64,000 bases of DNA from a phage, in the sequence record PZ862964.1. One strand, written 5' to 3'. Positions 5,556 through 15,875 of this stretch are shown here, in pieces. Position 1 is the first letter of the stretch. Every line of letters starts with the position of its first letter. The position numbers and the translations under genes were made by a program. The notes below the pieces were generated by a model, which made no database searches, was not told the origin of the DNA, and worked only from the letters and a program-made list of their open reading frames with translations.

Positions 5556-6884
5556 ATGCAACTGAATAATCGCGATTTAAAAAGTATCATTGATAATGAA
5601 GCATTGGCTTATGCTATGTACACGGTTGAAAATCGTGCTATCCCAAATATGATTGACGGATTTAAGCCAGTTCAACGATTTGTTATTGCTCGAGCTCTTG
5701 ATTTGGCACGAGGAAATAAAGATAAGTTTCACAAACTCGCTTCTATTGCAGGTGGTGTAGCGGACCTTGGATATCATCATGGTGAAAACTCTGCGCAAGA
5801 CGCAGGTGCTTTGATGGCTAATACTTGGAATAATAACTTTCCTTTGTTAGATGGTCAAGGAAACTTTGGTTCTCGTACTGTCCAAAAGGCAGCGGCAAGT
5901 CGTTATATTTTTGCTCGTGTAAGTAAAAATTTCTATAACGTATATAAAGATACTGAATATGCTCCGGTACATCAAGATAAAGAACACATTCCGCCTGCTT
6001 TCTATTTGCCTGTTATTCCTACTGTTCTTCTTAATGGCGTTTCCGGTATTGCAACTGGTTATGCAACTTACATTCTTCCTCATAGTGTTTCTTCTGTCAA
6101 GAAAGCTGTACTACAAGCTCTTCAAGGAAAGAAAGTAACTAAACCGAAGGTAGAATTCCCAGAATTTCGCGGTGAAGTCGTTGAAATTGATGGGCAATAT
6201 GAAATTCGTGGAACATATAAGTTTACTTCACGAACTCAAATGCATATCACTGAGATTCCGTATAAGTATGATCGTGAAACTTACGTGAGTAAAATCTTAG
6301 ACCCGCTTGAAGATAAAGGCTTCATTACATGGGATGATGCTTGCGGTGAGCATGGTTTTGGCTTTAAAATTAAATTCCGCAAAGAATACTCTTTGAGCGA
6401 TAATGAAGAAGAACGCCATGCAAAAATCATGAAAGACTTCGGGTTGATTGAGCGTCGTTCCCAGAATATTACCGTTATTAATGAGAAAGGAAAACTACAA
6501 GTTTACGATAACGTAGTTGATTTAATTAAAGACTTTGTTGAAGTTCGTAAAACTTATGTTCAAAAACGAATTGATAACAAAATTAAAGAAACTGAATCAG
6601 CTTTTCGTTTAGCCTTTGCCAAGGCGCATTTCATTAAGAAAGTAATTTCAGGTGAAATCGTTGTGCAGGGTAAAACTCGTAAAGAACTGACCGAAGAACT
6701 TTCGAAAATCGATATGTATTCTTCTTATGTTGATAAACTAGTTGGAATGAATATTTTTCATATGACTTCCGATGAAGCGAAGAAACTTGCTGAAGAAGCT
6801 AAAGCTAAAAAAGAAGAAAACGAATATTGGAAAACTACTGATGTAGTTACAGAATACACCAAAGATTTAGAGGAAATCAAATGA
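5556..6884 (+). CDS. 52: DNA topoisomerase II medium subunit gp52
   Basis: 442-aa ORF with GyrA/ParC-like N-terminal motif KPVQRFV; length as recalled for T4 gp52. Confidence 0.9.
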   Translation: MQLNNRDLKSIIDNEALAYAMYTVENRAIPNMIDGFKPVQRFVIARALDLARGNKDKFHKLASIAGGVADLGYHHGENSAQDAGALMANTWNNNFPLLDGQGNFGSRTVQKAAASRYIFARVSKNFYNVYKDTEYAPVHQDKEHIPPAFYLPVIPTVLLNGVSGIATGYATYILPHSVSSVKKAVLQALQGKKVTKPKVEFPEFRGEVVEIDGQYEIRGTYKFTSRTQMHITEIPYKYDRETYVSKILDPLEDKGFITWDDACGEHGFGFKIKFRKEYSLSDNEEERHAKIMKDFGLIERRSQNITVINEKGKLQVYDNVVDLIKDFVEVRKTYVQKRIDNKIKETESAFRLAFAKAHFIKKVISGEIVVQGKTRKELTEELSKIDMYSSYVDKLVGMNIFHMTSDEAKKLAEEAKAKKEENEYWKTTDVVTEYTKDLEEIK

Positions 6885-7030
6885 GTCCATTCGTAGGTAT
6901 TACAAGCGCAGCATTAGTATCTGGCGGCATTTTACTAGCGGGGGTAGGTGTTGTTCCAGCCGTAGCAGGAGGTCTTCTTGCTTTTGGTATTCAGCGTGTT
7001 ATCACGATAGTTATCGCGTTTGAACAGTAA
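6881..7030 (+). CDS. hypothetical 49-aa glycine-rich membrane peptide
   Basis: ATGA overlap with gene 52 stop; followed by hairpin terminator. Confidence 0.5.
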   Translation: MSPFVGITSAALVSGGILLAGVGVVPAVAGGLLAFGIQRVITIVIAFEQ

Positions 7031-7035
7031 TTTTT

Positions 7036-7059
7036 GGGGAGCTTCGGCTCCCCTTTTTT
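7036..7059 (+). terminator. intrinsic terminator
   Basis: GGGGAGC-TTCG-GCTCCCC followed by TTTTTT. Confidence 0.7.
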
Positions 7060-7084
7060 ATTTCAAAAATTTTTTCACAAAACG

Positions 7085-7114
7085 GTTTACAACCAAAGCA
7101 TACTGTGGTACTAT
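7085..7114 (+). promoter_or_regulatory. early-type promoter upstream of motA
   Basis: GTTTAC, 18 nt, TACTAT; flanks near-identical to the cassette at 24216-24285. Confidence 0.6.
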
Positions 7115-7155
7115 ACAACTATCAACTACTGATACAGAATTACGGAGATTAGAAA

Positions 7156-7791
7156 ATGTCTAAAGTAACTTACATCATCAAAGCTTCTAACGATGTTCTG
7201 AATGAAAAAACTGCTGCGATTTTAATTACTATTGCTAAGAAAGATTTCATTACAGCTGCAGAAGTTCGTGAGGTGCATCCAGATTTAGGTAACGCAGTAG
7301 TTAATAGTAATATTGGGGTATTGATTAAAAAAGGCCTGGTGGAGAAATCAGGTGATGGATTAATCATCACAGGCGAAGCGCAAGATATTATTTCAAACGC
7401 AGCAACTTTATATGCGCAAGAAAATGCTCCAGAACTTCTGAAAAAACGTGCTACTCGTAAAGCTCGTGAGATTACTTCTGATATGGAAGAAGATAAAGAC
7501 TTCATGTTAAAACTTTTAGATGAAAATGGATTTGTTCTTAAAAAGGTTGAAACTTATCGTAGCAATTATCTTGCCATTTTAGAAAAACGTACACATGGAA
7601 TTCGCAATTTTGAAATTAACAACAATGGAAATATGCGAATTTTTGGATACAAAATGATGGAACATCATATTCAGAAATTTACTGATATCGGAATGTCATG
7701 TAAAATCGCTAAAAACGGTAATGTGTATCTTGACATTAAACGCTCGGAAGAAAACATTGAAGCCGTAATCACTGTAGCATCTGAACTGTGA
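7156..7791 (+). CDS. motA: middle-transcription activator MotA
   Basis: 211-aa ORF MSKVTYIIKASNDVLNEK...; agrees with recalled T4 MotA; preceded by early promoter cassette. Confidence 0.9.
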   Translation: MSKVTYIIKASNDVLNEKTAAILITIAKKDFITAAEVREVHPDLGNAVVNSNIGVLIKKGLVEKSGDGLIITGEAQDIISNAATLYAQENAPELLKKRATRKAREITSDMEEDKDFMLKLLDENGFVLKKVETYRSNYLAILEKRTHGIRNFEINNNGNMRIFGYKMMEHHIQKFTDIGMSCKIAKNGNVYLDIKRSEENIEAVITVASEL

Positions 7792-9883: not shown

Positions 9884-10540
9884 TTATTTAGCCCTTCCTA
9901 ATATTCTGGCCGCCTGAGCACATATTGATTCAAGGCGGTCATTACTTATATGATCATTTCTATACCAGTACATGGTTATCGTTCCAGCATAGATATTATC
10001 CAAATTAAAATATGGACAACTGTACATGTAGTTTATTTCGGGAGTAGGCTTTTTAGTTGGTAAAAAAGCAAATTTTGAGTTGGAATAATAATGACGTCCA
10101 TTTAAATGAACTGCATATTCATCCATAGTTTTATCAACAGGATATCCTCCAAGTGATTTTTCACTTATTGTTGAAGGTAATTTTCCTTCATATGCTATAA
10201 TATCAACAAAATAGTTTAAGTTTTTAGGGCGGAAAGAATACACCGCACTAAAGTCTGCCTCAGATGATATATGAACTATCTGGAGTTGTTCCAGGGCGAC
10301 AGATTCAAAGCGTGCATTTCTTTCCTTTTCAATAATTTCACTGTATGTTTCATACTTTGATTGCTTATAGTACTCAAAGAAACTATCTCCCCTATACCAA
10401 ACAATCGCCATCATAAATAAAAGAATTACGACAGCTACCCGGGAAGCAAGAACTTTCCCGGTAGCGTTATCTTTGAACAAGCGATCTAGAACACCAAATA
10501 GAATATCAGAGGGCGAAAATGATATTCTAGGTGCTGCCAT
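9884..10540 (-). CDS. t: holin T
   Basis: 218-aa ORF with N-terminal TM segment (VAVVILLFMMAIVWY) and large periplasmic domain; size and position after gene 38 as in T4. Confidence 0.9.
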   Translation of the reverse strand: MAAPRISFSPSDILFGVLDRLFKDNATGKVLASRVAVVILLFMMAIVWYRGDSFFEYYKQSKYETYSEIIEKERNARFESVALEQLQIVHISSEADFSAVYSFRPKNLNYFVDIIAYEGKLPSTISEKSLGGYPVDKTMDEYAVHLNGRHYYSNSKFAFLPTKKPTPEINYMYSCPYFNLDNIYAGTITMYWYRNDHISNDRLESICAQAARILGRAK

Positions 10541-10571: not shown

Positions 10572-11378
10572 TTATACTCTTGAACCGTATATTGTACCAA
10601 CCTTAGTCCATGTTGGGGCATTTCCGGTAACAGCTTTACCCGCAGCGCCAGCGCCACTAGTTTGAAAGTTTGATGTACGAACAGCAGCGCCACCAGCTGA
10701 GCCAACATTACCACCCGCACCACTCATGTTATTACCATCAACAGTTACTTTACCACCTGCGGCGGTTAACGATGCATTACCACCATTACCTCGACCACCT
10801 CGACCACCAGTACCGAAAGGACGTCCGCCTCCACCACCAGCAACATTACCTAATGTGAAGTTATAATCTACGGACCAACCACCACCGCCACCGCCACCGC
10901 CAGCAATTGCGCCATTATTCGTAATACGTAAGCGTGTACCAATACCATTATTAATCGCTGTACCACCAGCAGTTGCTCGAACTAAAGCATCTCCAGAACC
11001 TCCACTAGATCCAGATCCATTACCTCCTCGGCCATAAACAGTAACGCCAGAGTTAATAATCAATGTCACATATTCATTAGTTAATGAACTAGGAAAATCT
11101 AAGCACGGAATAGTTGAAGAACTAGAAACAATATCTCCTGTTATTGTTACAACAGCAGGAGCTGTTCCAATTGATTTAAGCCAATTAATTAAAGTATCTT
11201 TATTATATGAATGATTTGAGCCAATTGAATAAGCTTTTTCAACTGACTTTCCTGCCATTGAACTCATCCAACCGGGAACTGAAACACGAACTGCTCTCAT
11301 CGCAGCATCCATCCAACGTTGTCCAGTTTCATTCACGGCAGATTCGCCAATCCAGCCAGGAACACCTACAATTGCCAT
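10572..11378 (-). CDS. 38: long tail fibre adhesin gp38 (T2-type, glycine-rich motifs)
   Basis: 268 aa; glycine-rich motifs (GGGGGGGGW, GGGGRPFGTGGRGGRGNGGN) between variable segments; located between gene 37 and t. Confidence 0.8.
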   Translation of the reverse strand: MAIVGVPGWIGESAVNETGQRWMDAAMRAVRVSVPGWMSSMAGKSVEKAYSIGSNHSYNKDTLINWLKSIGTAPAVVTITGDIVSSSSTIPCLDFPSSLTNEYVTLIINSGVTVYGRGGNGSGSSGGSGDALVRATAGGTAINNGIGTRLRITNNGAIAGGGGGGGGWSVDYNFTLGNVAGGGGGRPFGTGGRGGRGNGGNASLTAAGGKVTVDGNNMSGAGGNVGSAGGAAVRTSNFQTSGAGAAGKAVTGNAPTWTKVGTIYGSRV

Positions 11379-11408
11379 TAAAAATCCTTAGAGGGCCGAA
11401 GCCCTCTT

Positions 11409-14400
11409 TTACATAAGTTTAGATTCAAGTTCTTTTACACGAGCAGAAAGTGTTTTCACAGCTTCAACCAGAAGAGCAATCTGGGCTTGAGAAGAAACAG
11501 TGAGTATTTTATTACCCTTACTGTCTTCTGTTTCACGGACAGCTTCTGGTAAAACGTCTTGTAACGTTTGAGCCACAATACCCGCTTCAGTTTCAATTGC
11601 CTCTCCACCGATATATTCAGCTTTATCGTAAATGACACCGTTAAGTTTTTCAACTTTATCAAGTGCATTTTCGATAGGTTTGAAGTTAGATTTTAAACGA
11701 ATATCAGAACGAATATAAACGTTTGGAGCATTTATATTTTTGTATGAGTACAAATCACCGTTTTGGAAACGGAAAGTCTGTACACCATTCGCATATATGT
11801 CTAATAATCCATCGCCATTTTGCTTAATACCAGTGTCATTATCGCCAAACGCTATACTATTTCCACCAAGTGCGTTATTGATGTTAATACCAAATGAATT
11901 CATTTGATTAACACCAGCTACAGTAGCATTATTTACTACAAAGCGATTAGCTCCACCTGGTGTTTTTTCAAAGTAAGCAATATAGTTAGTTTCATCGGCA
12001 ATTTCAATACGGTTACCGCGAGAAGCATCGCCAGCATGAAATATTCTCATATTTCTCGGGTTAGCGCCTGATTTATCAAAGTTAATAGAACCATTATCTT
12101 TGACGTTTATGCTATTATAGAATAAAGCAGCGCTGCGAACAGCTATGCCATTATTCATCATCACTTCGCCGGTTGTTAAGTTAATTGCGAAAGGACGTTT
12201 ACTATTCCAATCGCCATTAACAGTTGCTGCGCCATCGGTGGCATTTTTATCTGTAAACAGAATATAAAAACTACCGCCATCATTTCGTAGCATTGTAGCA
12301 ACAGAACCAGTTTTATCGCTGTTGCTTCTGATACGAATACCGGTTTGGCTATTAATAGCTATTTCAGAATCGGCTTCATAACGCTTAACTTTACCGCGAT
12401 CAACCAAGTTATTAAGAACATTAGCAACTTGACCGTTAACTGCTGTGTCTGGAAGAGCATCTACAGGCGATTGTGTAGATGAGTTAATACCAATAACACT
12501 AACAGTAGCATTTTCGGTACATGACCACTCACAAGCTAATTGATTACAATATGTTCCAGCAGAAACATAAATGTCATATGTATCTCCAGAGACGTTATTA
12601 ACTGCAATATCTTTAAATGCAGCTCCAATTGTTCTTGTGTATAATGCAGCATTTAAGTCAGCAGGTCTTTCATTACTAGTACGTAAAACAATTTCAGCAA
12701 TATTACATTGTGTGAATAATCCGCTATTAAATCCAGAACCTCCAACTATTTTAAAGAAAACTGTCGAAGTGGATTGTGGCATTGTTACTGTTGCAAACTT
12801 ATACCATCCAGAGGTTGCTCCATAAGTAATAAATCCAGAATTAACTTTACGATTTAACGTGGTATTTAAGTTGGCAAAGTTTCCTGAACCATTGGTAATA
12901 TTACCGTCAGTTCCTAGTTGGGCGTTTCTGACTTTAAGAGGCTTAGTAATATCGACAGAATCAGAATTTAATGCAATACCATGTGAATATGTGTAGCTGT
13001 GCATACGAACGACGTTGCCGCCATCGCCAATACCCAAATACCATTTATTCACATCAGCCTTACGTCCTTGAATGAAGTTAGAAGACTCTTGTGTTGGAGC
13101 ATTTATTCTAATAGCATCGCTCGCTGCATTAACTATAATACGTTGACCAGCCGTAGTTCCAGCCACTTCTACTTTAAATCTACCGCCGCCGATATCTACA
13201 TCATGATCCATGGAAACTTTACCAGTACTTAATGTAATATAGAACGGACGTAAATTAGAAATACCACCTGATTCACCAGCATTCTGCGGGGTTGGAATAA
13301 TATAAAGCTTATCTTCAGAACGACGGAAAATTGCACCATATTCAGCATTCCAAATTCTTAATGCATCGGCAGTTCCGCCGATTTTAACTTGTCCAGTAAT
13401 AGAAGAACCACCTTGGACAAACAAACCATTAGACATGGTAACATTACCGACTAAAGTGCTTAATCCATTAACTTTAAAACTTCCGTCAGTAATAATACTT
13501 CCTCTAGCATTAACAGCTCCAGCAAACTGGGTTACAACAGGACCAGTAGTTTCTGAGCCGCTTGGGGCTACGCGTTGGGAATAAAAATAATAACCTTGTC
13601 CGTCAGCTACTTCAAAAACCGTTTCACGATTACGATCGCCAGATGCGTTAAATGAATTACCCCATGCTTTAACAGTTACATAGCTTTTATTCTGCCCAGC
13701 ACGAGTACCGCCTTCCCACAAAATTTGCTTAGTACCATCAATACCTGAAGCTGCTTTAAAAATTAGAGAAGCGTTAGTTCCATCACTATTAAAATATAAT
13801 CCATTATTAAGCTTTAATGTTTGAACAGAAGCGACTGTACCGTCAGCACGCAAACTTAATGTATTTGAAGCAGTTTTAATATCTAAAATTCCTGGTTCAA
13901 CAATAAGTCCTTCGGCCATACTAACGGACATTCTTCCTCTGCCTCTAAAATAATGATAAAATTTACCATTACTATTATAGCCAATATGTGTCTGACTATC
14001 TCCGTTATTATTTTGGTCAACTTCAGTACGAACTGAAAGAAGAGCTGCGTTCTGACCAGGAAGAAGCCACGTACTACCTTGGTCTTCCGAGCGCCCAAAA
14101 ATCGCTTTGCGCGTACTACGGAAACTATCAGGAGTAATAGATGCTAAAGAAAGACCACTAGCAACTAAATCATATACTCCAGTTTTTTTGTATGATAAAC
14201 CTGTTGATGCATCACCGATAACTATATAACATTCGCCCATTGCTCCAGCGGAGCCGTAGTTATTAATGTTTTCATCTGTTGTAATTGTACCAATTGCGAG
14301 TGAGCGTCGTAATACTAAAGCCCCATCATTACGAAGACCCATTTGTTTATTAACGGCTGTATTACCAGTCCACCAAGAAAGTTCATCACTTTTTCCGGTT

Positions 14401-15170
14401 TGCGCAGAAGCGATTTCATGGTAAATGGTTCCGCCTGATTTAGCTCGAACTTTACGAAGGTAATTGATTCCGTTTGTTTCACCGGTTCCAGGATAAACAT
14501 ATTGAACTAATGACTGCGAATCGTATTGTCCGAATGCTTTTGTATCAAAAACTATGGTTTTTGTATTAATCTGTGGAGCAGAAACTATTCCAGTAGCTGA
14601 ATTAATATTACCAGAAGCAGAAATATTACCAGTACGAACTTCAATACTACCAGAGTCTACAATGAAATTGCCGTTTCGATTAAAAGTCCAATATTTTGAA
14701 GTTCCCGATTCGTTGATATAATGAATCTTAAAACTTCCTTCATTTACTAATGTACCAGCTGAAAAAGTTCCATCTTTATAGCGTTGCTTAATGAGTGGAT
14801 GATATTCTGAAACAGAAGTAGTTGAACTTAAATCTGTAAAGATAGGAGCTTTATTTACATGTTGATTTGCCCACGCACCATTACCAGCTGTTTTAGGTAA
14901 AAATTCAATATATTTTCCTGCATAAACAAACTGATTTCCATTGAGATTGTATGTACCGTTCTGTAAATAATCACCAGTTTGAGTAATATTACCACTGATA
15001 TTACCACCAGCAGAAATGCTTAAATCAATGATATTTCCTGAATCATCTTTAGTAAAAATTGTTCTATCTTTTAAGTTTATAGCCAATTCACCTTCGGCTA
15101 ATACTGAAGCAGCAGGACGTGCACCTGCGGTTTTGCTTCTTTTAAATTGTATTTGTTTTAAAGTAGCCAT
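11409..15170 (-). CDS. 37: long tail fibre distal subunit gp37 with C-terminal intramolecular chaperone-like domain
   Basis: 1253-aa ORF in 34-35-36-37-38 order; C-terminal ~98 aa (SDIRLKSNF...GIVAQTLQDVLPEAV...) resemble S74-type self-cleaving chaperone domains. Confidence 0.85.
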   Translation of the reverse strand: MATLKQIQFKRSKTAGARPAASVLAEGELAINLKDRTIFTKDDSGNIIDLSISAGGNISGNITQTGDYLQNGTYNLNGNQFVYAGKYIEFLPKTAGNGAWANQHVNKAPIFTDLSSTTSVSEYHPLIKQRYKDGTFSAGTLVNEGSFKIHYINESGTSKYWTFNRNGNFIVDSGSIEVRTGNISASGNINSATGIVSAPQINTKTIVFDTKAFGQYDSQSLVQYVYPGTGETNGINYLRKVRAKSGGTIYHEIASAQTGKSDELSWWTGNTAVNKQMGLRNDGALVLRRSLAIGTITTDENINNYGSAGAMGECYIVIGDASTGLSYKKTGVYDLVASGLSLASITPDSFRSTRKAIFGRSEDQGSTWLLPGQNAALLSVRTEVDQNNNGDSQTHIGYNSNGKFYHYFRGRGRMSVSMAEGLIVEPGILDIKTASNTLSLRADGTVASVQTLKLNNGLYFNSDGTNASLIFKAASGIDGTKQILWEGGTRAGQNKSYVTVKAWGNSFNASGDRNRETVFEVADGQGYYFYSQRVAPSGSETTGPVVTQFAGAVNARGSIITDGSFKVNGLSTLVGNVTMSNGLFVQGGSSITGQVKIGGTADALRIWNAEYGAIFRRSEDKLYIIPTPQNAGESGGISNLRPFYITLSTGKVSMDHDVDIGGGRFKVEVAGTTAGQRIIVNAASDAIRINAPTQESSNFIQGRKADVNKWYLGIGDGGNVVRMHSYTYSHGIALNSDSVDITKPLKVRNAQLGTDGNITNGSGNFANLNTTLNRKVNSGFITYGATSGWYKFATVTMPQSTSTVFFKIVGGSGFNSGLFTQCNIAEIVLRTSNERPADLNAALYTRTIGAAFKDIAVNNVSGDTYDIYVSAGTYCNQLACEWSCTENATVSVIGINSSTQSPVDALPDTAVNGQVANVLNNLVDRGKVKRYEADSEIAINSQTGIRIRSNSDKTGSVATMLRNDGGSFYILFTDKNATDGAATVNGDWNSKRPFAINLTTGEVMMNNGIAVRSAALFYNSINVKDNGSINFDKSGANPRNMRIFHAGDASRGNRIEIADETNYIAYFEKTPGGANRFVVNNATVAGVNQMNSFGININNALGGNSIAFGDNDTGIKQNGDGLLDIYANGVQTFRFQNGDLYSYKNINAPNVYIRSDIRLKSNFKPIENALDKVEKLNGVIYDKAEYIGGEAIETEAGIVAQTLQDVLPEAVRETEDSKGNKILTVSSQAQIALLVEAVKTLSARVKELESKLM

Positions 15171-15867: not shown

Positions 15868-15875
15868 TATTTATA
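15868..15875 (-). promoter_or_regulatory. late promoter (TATAAATA) for gene 36
   Basis: TATAAATA on minus strand about 24 nt upstream of gene 36 ATG. Confidence 0.6.

Follow-up and report, generated by a model that had tools for sequence, protein, structure and literature searches.

The stretch of phage DNA analysed here, 64,000 nucleotides (nt) from sequence record PZ862964.1 and hereafter called the window, is a Tequatrovirus genome that is ~97% identical to many deposited phages. On its minus strand, at 10572..11378 (stop codon included), lies gene 38, an intact ATG-started open reading frame (ORF) for a 268-residue protein, gp38. Gene 38 occupies the middle position in the gene order 37-38-t of the Tequatrovirus long-tail-fibre operon, separated from gene 37 by 30 nt. 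With a probability of about 0.95, we conclude that this locus encodes a T2/S16-type gp38, the receptor-recognising adhesin of a T2-type long tail fibre.

A sequence-only reading of the same DNA had described a 268-residue gp38 with poly-glycine blocks, and this description holds exactly; the ORF has the boundaries given above, and the three glycine strings that were quoted are present at residues 160-168 (GGGGGGGGW), 181-201 (GGGG(G)RPFGTGGRGGRGNGGN) and 221-233 (GAGGNVGSAGGAA). Glycine makes up 60 of the 268 residues overall and 47 of the 135 residues between positions 116 and 250. This richness is not chance low complexity, because the Pfam family GP38 (PF05268) matches the protein end to end (E 8.4e-67, 225.6 bits, profile positions 1-218 of 218, residues 47-268). 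The N-terminal residues 1-42 match Gp38_N (PF21721; E 8.5e-18, 64.5 bits); the curated Pfam cut-off is 25 bits for both families. PHROG 2056, annotated as ‘tail fiber protein; host specificity’, is likewise matched over its whole profile (E 5e-91, positions 1-267 of 267). Local GC content climbs to 0.51 across gene 38, with flanking windows at ~0.33-0.38, because of the load of GGN and GCN codons for glycine and alanine; a foreign origin, considered as the source of this spike, was dropped since the codon load accounts for it.

The fold prediction agrees with the family assignment. A sequence search of the PDB with gp38 returned only two matches, both near full length: 6F45_D, the gp38 of phage S16 (E 3.6e-43, residues 8-266), and 9V85_A, the receptor-binding domain of phage PP01 gp38 (E 4e-41). 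An AlphaFold2 model built with 62 homologues was confident (mean predicted local distance difference test score, pLDDT, 90.9; predicted template-modelling score, pTM, 0.86), dipping only at the loops formed by four hypervariable segments (HVSs). A Foldseek search with the model recovered the same two structures, 6F45_D with template-modelling (TM) scores of 0.80/0.86 and 9V85_C with 0.75/0.90, and apart from 6F45 and 9V85 no PDB fold scored below E 0.6. The protein aligns over its full length with the gp38 proteins of T2, T6, S16 and PP01, which is the opposite of the failure to align that the sequence-only reading had named as its refuting outcome, and the structure prediction it had proposed as a check returned the S16 and PP01 folds. 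Five features that mark an adhesin-type gp38 are thus in place: the GP38 profile, the tryptophan-bearing N-terminus, the alternation of glycine-rich motifs (GRMs) and HVSs, the predicted three-domain fold, and an upstream gp37 that bears a Peptidase_S74 (S74) domain. We find nothing that counts against the family assignment, and 763 records of the phage collection hold homologues.

T4 also has a protein named gp38, which the sequence-only reading had set apart as an assembly chaperone of 183 residues; that length is correct. The two proteins have gene name and map position in common, and differ in family and role. BLASTP between them yields E 7.7 over 7 residues, that is, no similarity; T4 gp38 has no Pfam GP38 match and falls in phrog_105 (‘tail fiber assembly’), as opposed to phrog_2056 for the protein of the window. 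The partner proteins differ in kind as well, as the C-terminus of T4 gp37 carries Collar and Phage_fiber repeats and lacks S74, whereas the gp37 of the window carries Peptidase_S74 and lacks the T4-type Collar and fibre-repeat tip. The RefSeq T4 note itself describes the two ‘gp38’ proteins as unrelated. Sequence, predicted fold, gene position and gp37 type therefore concur in the adhesin type, as the sequence-only reading had held. Since the adhesin type is the predominant gp38 form among T4-like phages (PMC6851490, Dunne and Leiman; Trojet et al. 2011) and is matched by those 763 records, its presence here in place of a T4-type gp38 is unsurprising. One further profile, phrog_1121 (181 positions, matching gp38 residues 1-102), was considered as a T4-type family and ruled out, as T4 gp38 belongs to phrog_105 and shows no similarity.

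The protein is already known. Escherichia phage vB_EcoM_FJ1 (MZ170040) encodes a gp38 with 100% amino acid identity across all 268 residues, and the family has been characterised structurally and functionally. Phage Lutter (99.6%), phage G8 (97%) and Hafnia phage IsaacDaniel (97%) follow closely, each with the gene likewise flanked by those for gp37 and the holin, and Shigella boydii phages SH-1 and SH-2 carry proteins that are 85% identical. The IsaacDaniel adhesin (vB_HpaM_IsaacDaniel, MW749000, a phage of Hafnia paralvei; local record L003, 1501-2304) is 97.5% identical in the receptor-binding half. So close a likeness suggests a receptor epitope common to the genera of E. coli and Hafnia.

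To describe the anatomy of gp38 we used an alignment of 18 gp38 sequences, including those of phages with experimentally assigned receptors, together with conservation columns drawn from 62 homologues. Residues 1-45 (11244..11378, minus strand, as are all gene features below) form the gp37-attachment domain, in which W9, W22 and W37 each start a short helix; the model places these helices at residues 10-18, 23-29 and 38-41. The three residues align with three tryptophans of S16 gp38, which plug into gp37 and serve in docking in the 6F45 structure (PMC6851490); conservation of W9 and W22 is at least 90% among the 62 homologues. Among the Tequatrovirus relatives compared, identity over this domain is 96-100% (96-98% in T2, JK38 and Bas45), except for IsaacDaniel (91%), Bas38 (67%) and T6 (67%). 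Residues 46-115 (11034..11243) begin the central beta-helix domain and are modelled as beta strands with pLDDT 89-98 and aligning with S16 and PP01 gp38.

The receptor-binding region spans residues 116-244 (10647..11033) and alternates the GRMs of a polyglycine-II sandwich with the four HVSs, a delineation based on the 18-sequence alignment, the invariant glycine columns and the structural match to 6F45_D and 9V85. The GRMs read GRGGNG, GG, GGGGGGGG, GGGGGRPFG and GAGGNVG. HVS1 (residues 122-137, SGSSGGSGDALVRATA; 10968..11015) is 6-25% identical to each receptor-typed reference, holds a 6-residue insertion restricted to the clade of this allele, and is where pLDDT dips to 76. It is followed by GRM3, eight consecutive glycine codons at residues 160-167 (10878..10901), the site of a crossover seen in Shigella phage SH-1. 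HVS2 (residues 168-180, WSVDYNFTLGNVA; 10839..10877) is the equivalent of loop B of PP01 gp38 and is 0-23% identical to typed references. HVS3 (residues 190-220, TGGRGGRGNGGNASLTAAGGKVTVDGNNMSG; 10719..10811) comprises two distal loops, corresponding to PP01 loops C and D (19-39%), and HVS4 (residues 228-244, SAGGAAVRTSNFQTSGA; 10647..10697) is the equivalent of PP01 loop E (12-35%). The sequence-only reading had treated the second quoted glycine string as a block separating variable segments; this is right for its conserved GGGGGRPFG portion, while the remainder (TGGRGGRGNGG) is an allele-specific, glycine-rich part of HVS3 itself. Residues 245-268 and the stop codon (10572..10646, ending in GNAPTWTKVGTIYGSRV) supply the conserved C-terminal beta-helix strands and, at the DNA level, a downstream homology arm; these residues are 96-100% identical in 10 of the 16 full-length comparison phages and 54-83% identical in T2, IME341, T6, Bas38, S16 and PP01.

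Taken together, conservation and variability are sharply partitioned. Relative to phages outside the clade, the GRM regions are 43-100% identical (mostly at least 71%) as against 0-39% for the HVSs, and the scaffold as a whole is mostly 70-100% identical to other adhesins. What the gp38 family keeps are the three tryptophans, the glycine runs, RPFG and the C-terminal motif; what diverges is HVS1-4. At the codon level, GRM3 mixes GGC and GGT (ggc ggt ggc ggt ggc ggt ggt ggt) with no single codon repeated throughout, and the GGC/GGT alternation in the glycine runs of 10647-11033 avoids long homopolymers and perfect tandem repeats while keeping short identities between alleles.

The DNA of the locus is a mosaic, which we mapped by 60-nt sliding identity of the window against 10 phages and by blastn against FJ1. 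Upstream of ~11550 the window tracks JLBYU22, JK38 and Sf22 (98-100% to JLBYU22), with FJ1 at 40-90%. Between ~11550 and 11250, a zone that contains the end of gene 37, an intercistronic hairpin and gp38 codons 1-43, all 10 phages are 92-100% identical, except in one 60-nt window in which IsaacDaniel drops to 83%. The next ~660 bp (10591..11250) are allele-specific: FJ1-type DNA is 97-100% identical there, and JLBYU22, JK38, Sf22, T2 and Bas45 types are 38-90% identical. From ~10590 onward, through the gp38 C-terminus and the holin gene, identity in all 10 phages returns to 93-100%. The FJ1-type stretch is thus held between near-universal homology arms, and gp38 is therefore a cassette of ~660 bp; the window carries an FJ1-type gp38 behind a JLBYU22-type gp37. 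The blastn comparison had been read as one FJ1-type unit of gp37 C-terminus plus gp38, a reading we rejected as the finer scan shows the gp37 C-terminus to be conserved in nearly all phages.

Exchange also takes place within the gene. The gp38 of SH-1 is a chimera, KRT47-type up to gene nt 498 and of the window allele’s type from nt 500, with the switch inside glycine codons 160-167. It joins a KRT47/Sf22-type N-terminal half and HVS1 to the clade’s HVS2-4; its record (PQ642266; local record L004, 1501-2289) is unannotated and marked UNVERIFIED. Four metagenomic clusters (P0003-P0006) combine these HVS2-4 with N-terminal halves that differ widely and with a long or a short HVS1, and modular shuffling within the gp38 family has been described before (Trojet et al. 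2011). The glycine-run DNA provides internal crossover points, and gene 38 is an exchangeable cassette. Within the clade, substitutions concentrate at residues 170, 171, 177 and 178 in HVS2 and at F241, Q242 and T243 in HVS4 (FQT, YNT or YNA).

The partner protein, gp37, is the distal long-tail-fibre subunit (11409..15170; PHROG 1699), with a shaft of JLBYU22/JK38/Sf22 type and the same length, 1253 residues, as JLBYU22 gp37; FJ1 gp37, in contrast, has 1318 residues and shaft DNA only 40-90% identical. In the gp37 of the window, the C-terminal residues 1156-1253 (11412..11705) form an intramolecular chaperone (Peptidase_S74, PF13884, E 3.3e-15 over residues 1155-1212). S74 chaperones are established as self-cleaving folding aids of this kind of protein, and T2 gp37 is known to be processed; by this precedent the C-terminal domain is predicted to be cut off after Ser1155, within a motif (...NVYIRS|DIRLK...) that is conserved among the phages compared. 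Upstream of the predicted cut, residues 1100-1155 (11706..11873) make up the mature fibre tip and the expected docking surface for gp38, a role taken from the description of 6F45 (PMC6851490); the tip is near-invariant in the Tequatrovirus relatives compared, except for the more divergent FJ1, JK38, Bas38 and T6. The shaft itself is mosaic. It is 98-100% identical to the JLBYU22/JK38 type throughout, resembles Sf22 for the most part but falls to 62-73% around 11850-11970, is Bas45-type only downstream of ~12390, and upstream of ~12700 mostly cannot be aligned with G8, T2 or KRT47.

Beyond the family, predicted fold, synteny and mosaic structure, which the analysis shows directly, homology with S16, PP01 and T2 suggests a mechanism, and from this homology we infer virion location, cleavage and receptor binding. 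In it, gp37 would trimerise with the aid of its own S74 domain, release of that domain after Ser1155 would expose the conserved tip, and a single gp38 monomer would cap the gp37 trimer through its N-terminal three-helix domain (W9, W22, W37), which puts gp38 on the virion, probably at the tip of the fibre. At the far end of the adhesin, the GRMs would form a rigid polyglycine-II sandwich from which the four HVSs emerge as distal loops that would contact the outer-membrane receptor and determine primary adsorption specificity. The S16 gp37-gp38 tip complex has the stoichiometry A3B1 in 6F45, and the S16 gp38 structure has been described in full (PMC6851490). In PP01, gene 38 is essential in a phage with T2 fibres, and residues of loops B, D and E decide OmpC binding (PMC12892980); the same study cautions that models built without restraints may mislead. 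A gp38 swap redirected phage CM8 from Tsx to OmpA with only the distal half from HVS2 exchanged, and one substitution in HVS3 turned OmpF use into OmpW use (bioRxiv 10.64898/2026.04.02.716166). By analogy, gp38 probably sets which outer-membrane receptor is bound by the phage of the window. The sequence-only reading had called this locus the likely host-range determinant; it is well placed as the determinant of the primary receptor, and the definite article goes slightly too far, as phages with identical Gp38 can differ in infection pattern (PMC12032242).

Two points limit what can be said on recognition. The loops are 15-28% identical to those of receptor-typed adhesins, too divergent to name a receptor, and adsorption of FJ1, with its identical gp38, was sensitive to periodate and insensitive to proteinase K, a poor fit to a purely protein receptor in what is a crude assay (PMC10035155).

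We compared the protein with typed adhesins, taking receptors from Table S1 of bioRxiv 10.64898/2026.04.02.716166 and, in the case of Sf22 and KRT47, the OmpC assignment of Tinney 2022 (cited in PMC12892980). Combined identity over HVS1-4 is 28% to Sf22 and KRT47, 26% to Bas38, 25% to PP01, 24% to S16 and to T2, 20% to Bas45 and FL18, and 15-19% to T6 and JK38. The structural prototype, S16 gp38 (6F45_D), has in common with the protein of the window the three-domain layout, the docking tryptophans, the GGGGGGGG poly-glycine helix 3, GGGGGRP and the C-terminal strands; it is 43% identical overall and 24% in the variable loops, and recognises Salmonella OmpC. At 249 residues it is 19 shorter, mainly owing to the longer HVS1 and HVS2 of the window protein. 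The gp38 proteins of T2 (FadL; 60.5% identity overall), T6 and JK38 (Tsx), Bas45 and FL18 (OmpA) and Bas38 (OmpF) belong to the same family and have the same scaffold and gene position. The loops do not cluster with those of typed Tsx, OmpA, OmpF or FadL members, and because loop identity is 15-26%, these specificities are not transferable to the window gp38. With the receptor-binding half as a tblastn query against 50,697 phage records, no typed phage exceeded ~66%.

The first candidate is the porin OmpC, used by the Shigella phages Sf22 and KRT47 and by the more distant PP01 and S16. Four observations speak for it: i) outside its own clade, the best matches to the receptor-binding half among the 50,697 records are the group of Sf22, KRT47, CrRp10 and ime09 at ~65%, and Sf22 and KRT47, the nearest receptor-typed relatives at 70% identity overall, require OmpC (Tinney et al. 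2022, as summarised in PMC12892980), ii) SH-1 joins the clade’s HVS2-4 to an Sf22-type N-terminal half and HVS1, iii) an aromatic residue follows the poly-glycine run, W168 as compared with Y159 of PP01, and iv) F/Y241 aligns with PP01 Tyr230. The gp38 of PP01, an OmpC-dependent phage of E. coli O157, also has the same fold (9V85). However, the ~65% match is mostly glycine scaffold, and the 28% identity over HVS1-4 falls to 21% at non-glycine positions; it equals the identity to the adhesin of Dhakavirus IME341, whose receptor is untyped, and is barely above that to T2 (FadL) and Bas38 (OmpF). The critical motifs are not kept either, in that GYY of PP01, Sf22 and KRT47, with the Tyr209 essential in PP01, is replaced by GNNMS in HVS3, and GKYV by GNVA, the loops of these three phages being 25-28% identical to those of the window. 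The loop set does not cluster with the typed OmpC subgroup (PP01, Sf22, KRT47) and its Tyr209/GKY motifs, although another loop solution for OmpC is conceivable. We hold OmpC to be a tentative and somewhat doubtful candidate.

The loop set of the FJ1, Lutter, G8, IsaacDaniel and SH-1 clade, with its HVS1 insertion and with HVS2-4 unlike those of any typed adhesin, could also recognise a target outside the typed Tsx, OmpA, OmpC, OmpF, FadL and OmpW. Such a target could be the core of lipopolysaccharide (LPS), contacted directly, or else a so far untyped outer-membrane protein that is conserved in E. coli, Shigella boydii and Hafnia paralvei. We consider this rather unlikely; if true, it would explain both the host spread of the clade and the periodate-sensitive, proteinase-K-insensitive adsorption of FJ1.

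Carbohydrate, either LPS core or O-antigen, may be recognised instead of or besides a protein. FJ1 adsorption fell by 48% after periodate and resistant mutants lost adsorption, which led the authors to name LPS as the receptor (PMC10035155). There is precedent in Pet-CM3-4, a phage with a gp38-type adhesin that uses LPS core; one substitution in an HVS is enough to shift it to an O-antigen, and basic HVS residues matter (PMC10194368). Loop-B residues of PP01 lie near LPS sugars (PMC12892980). The within-clade hotspots at 170, 171, 177, 178 and 241-243 coincide with the LPS-sugar-proximal (K168, Y169) and loop-E (Y230) positions of PP01. Phages of three host species, E. coli, Shigella boydii and Hafnia paralvei, carry this adhesin. 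Against this, the assay with periodate and proteinase K is an indirect one, and outer-membrane beta-barrels often resist proteinase K. T-even short tail fibres also need LPS, as Gp12 targets LPS core sugars (bioRxiv 10.64898/2026.04.02.716166), the FJ1 gp37 shaft differs from that of the window, and no mapped LPS mutant is reported for FJ1 in the available part of PMC10035155. We judge a carbohydrate receptor unlikely, and roughly assign the probability left over by OmpC and carbohydrate to a different known porin or to a protein not yet typed.

The weakest alternative, a T4-type assembly chaperone that would help gp37 fold, be absent from the virion and have no receptor role, has in its favour only a common gene name, the location between 37 and t, and the label ‘distal long tail fiber assembly catalyst’ that several GenBank records give to homologues of the adhesin type, but it is already refuted by the comparisons of sequence and predicted fold given above, and its probability is close to nil. 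Public annotation of gene 38 is inconsistent in general. Its product is listed as a ‘hypothetical protein’ for FJ1 and in a T2 record (MH751506), and the T4-type label stands on the adhesin-type gp38 of T6 (MH550421), ime09 (JN202312), teqsoen and others. The start annotated for FL18 has an in-frame ATG 20 codons upstream of it; with this ATG, which is 12 codons past the preceding stop, the conserved N-terminus is restored.

The surroundings of gene 38 fit its place in the operon. Its downstream neighbour is gene t (9884..10540), a holin of 218 residues (Pfam Phage_holin_T, E 5.9e-117) found in this position in all phages compared. An intercistronic GGC-UUCG-GCC tetraloop hairpin (11390..11407, minus strand; AGAGGGC-UUCG-GCCCUCU), with a fold energy of -13.4 kcal/mol (z -2.4), separates the gp37 stop from the ribosome-binding site of gp38 (AAGGA), and the 60-nt stretch around it (11430-11371) is 97-100% identical in all 10 phages compared. 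The record of phage G8 annotates the matching site as a putative terminator. Because no promoter match lies directly before gp38, a full terminator is less likely, and the hairpin may instead serve to stabilise the mRNA or as an attenuator. At 15868-15875 (minus strand), just upstream of the expected start of gene 36, there is an exact copy of the T4 late-promoter motif TATAAATA, which fits a single late transcription unit 36-37-38-t; the motif occurs 10 times in the window as against 9.7 expected, and none of these occurrences is directly before gene 38. A scan of the whole window with Rfam gave no matches. Elsewhere in the window, ~270 nt at 6885-7155, between a topoisomerase subunit gene (5556-6884) and motA (7156-7791), hold no ORF of at least 50 residues; the equivalent gap is unannotated in FJ1, and Bas38 annotates a 150-nt ORF there.

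As a discovery the adhesin counts for little, because its family, structure, modular evolution and receptor role are well documented and the exact protein is deposited; what remains of interest is the receptor that its loop-set clade binds, along with the clean map of the cassette. The clade is found in phages isolated on enterotoxigenic and Shiga toxin-producing E. coli, Shigella boydii and Hafnia and is without an assigned receptor; receptor-prediction schemes based on Gp38 phylogeny therefore cannot call it. Gene 38 is the gene to inspect or to swap if the adsorption specificity of this phage is to be predicted or re-engineered, and the cassette map supplies ready homology arms for such gp38 swaps.

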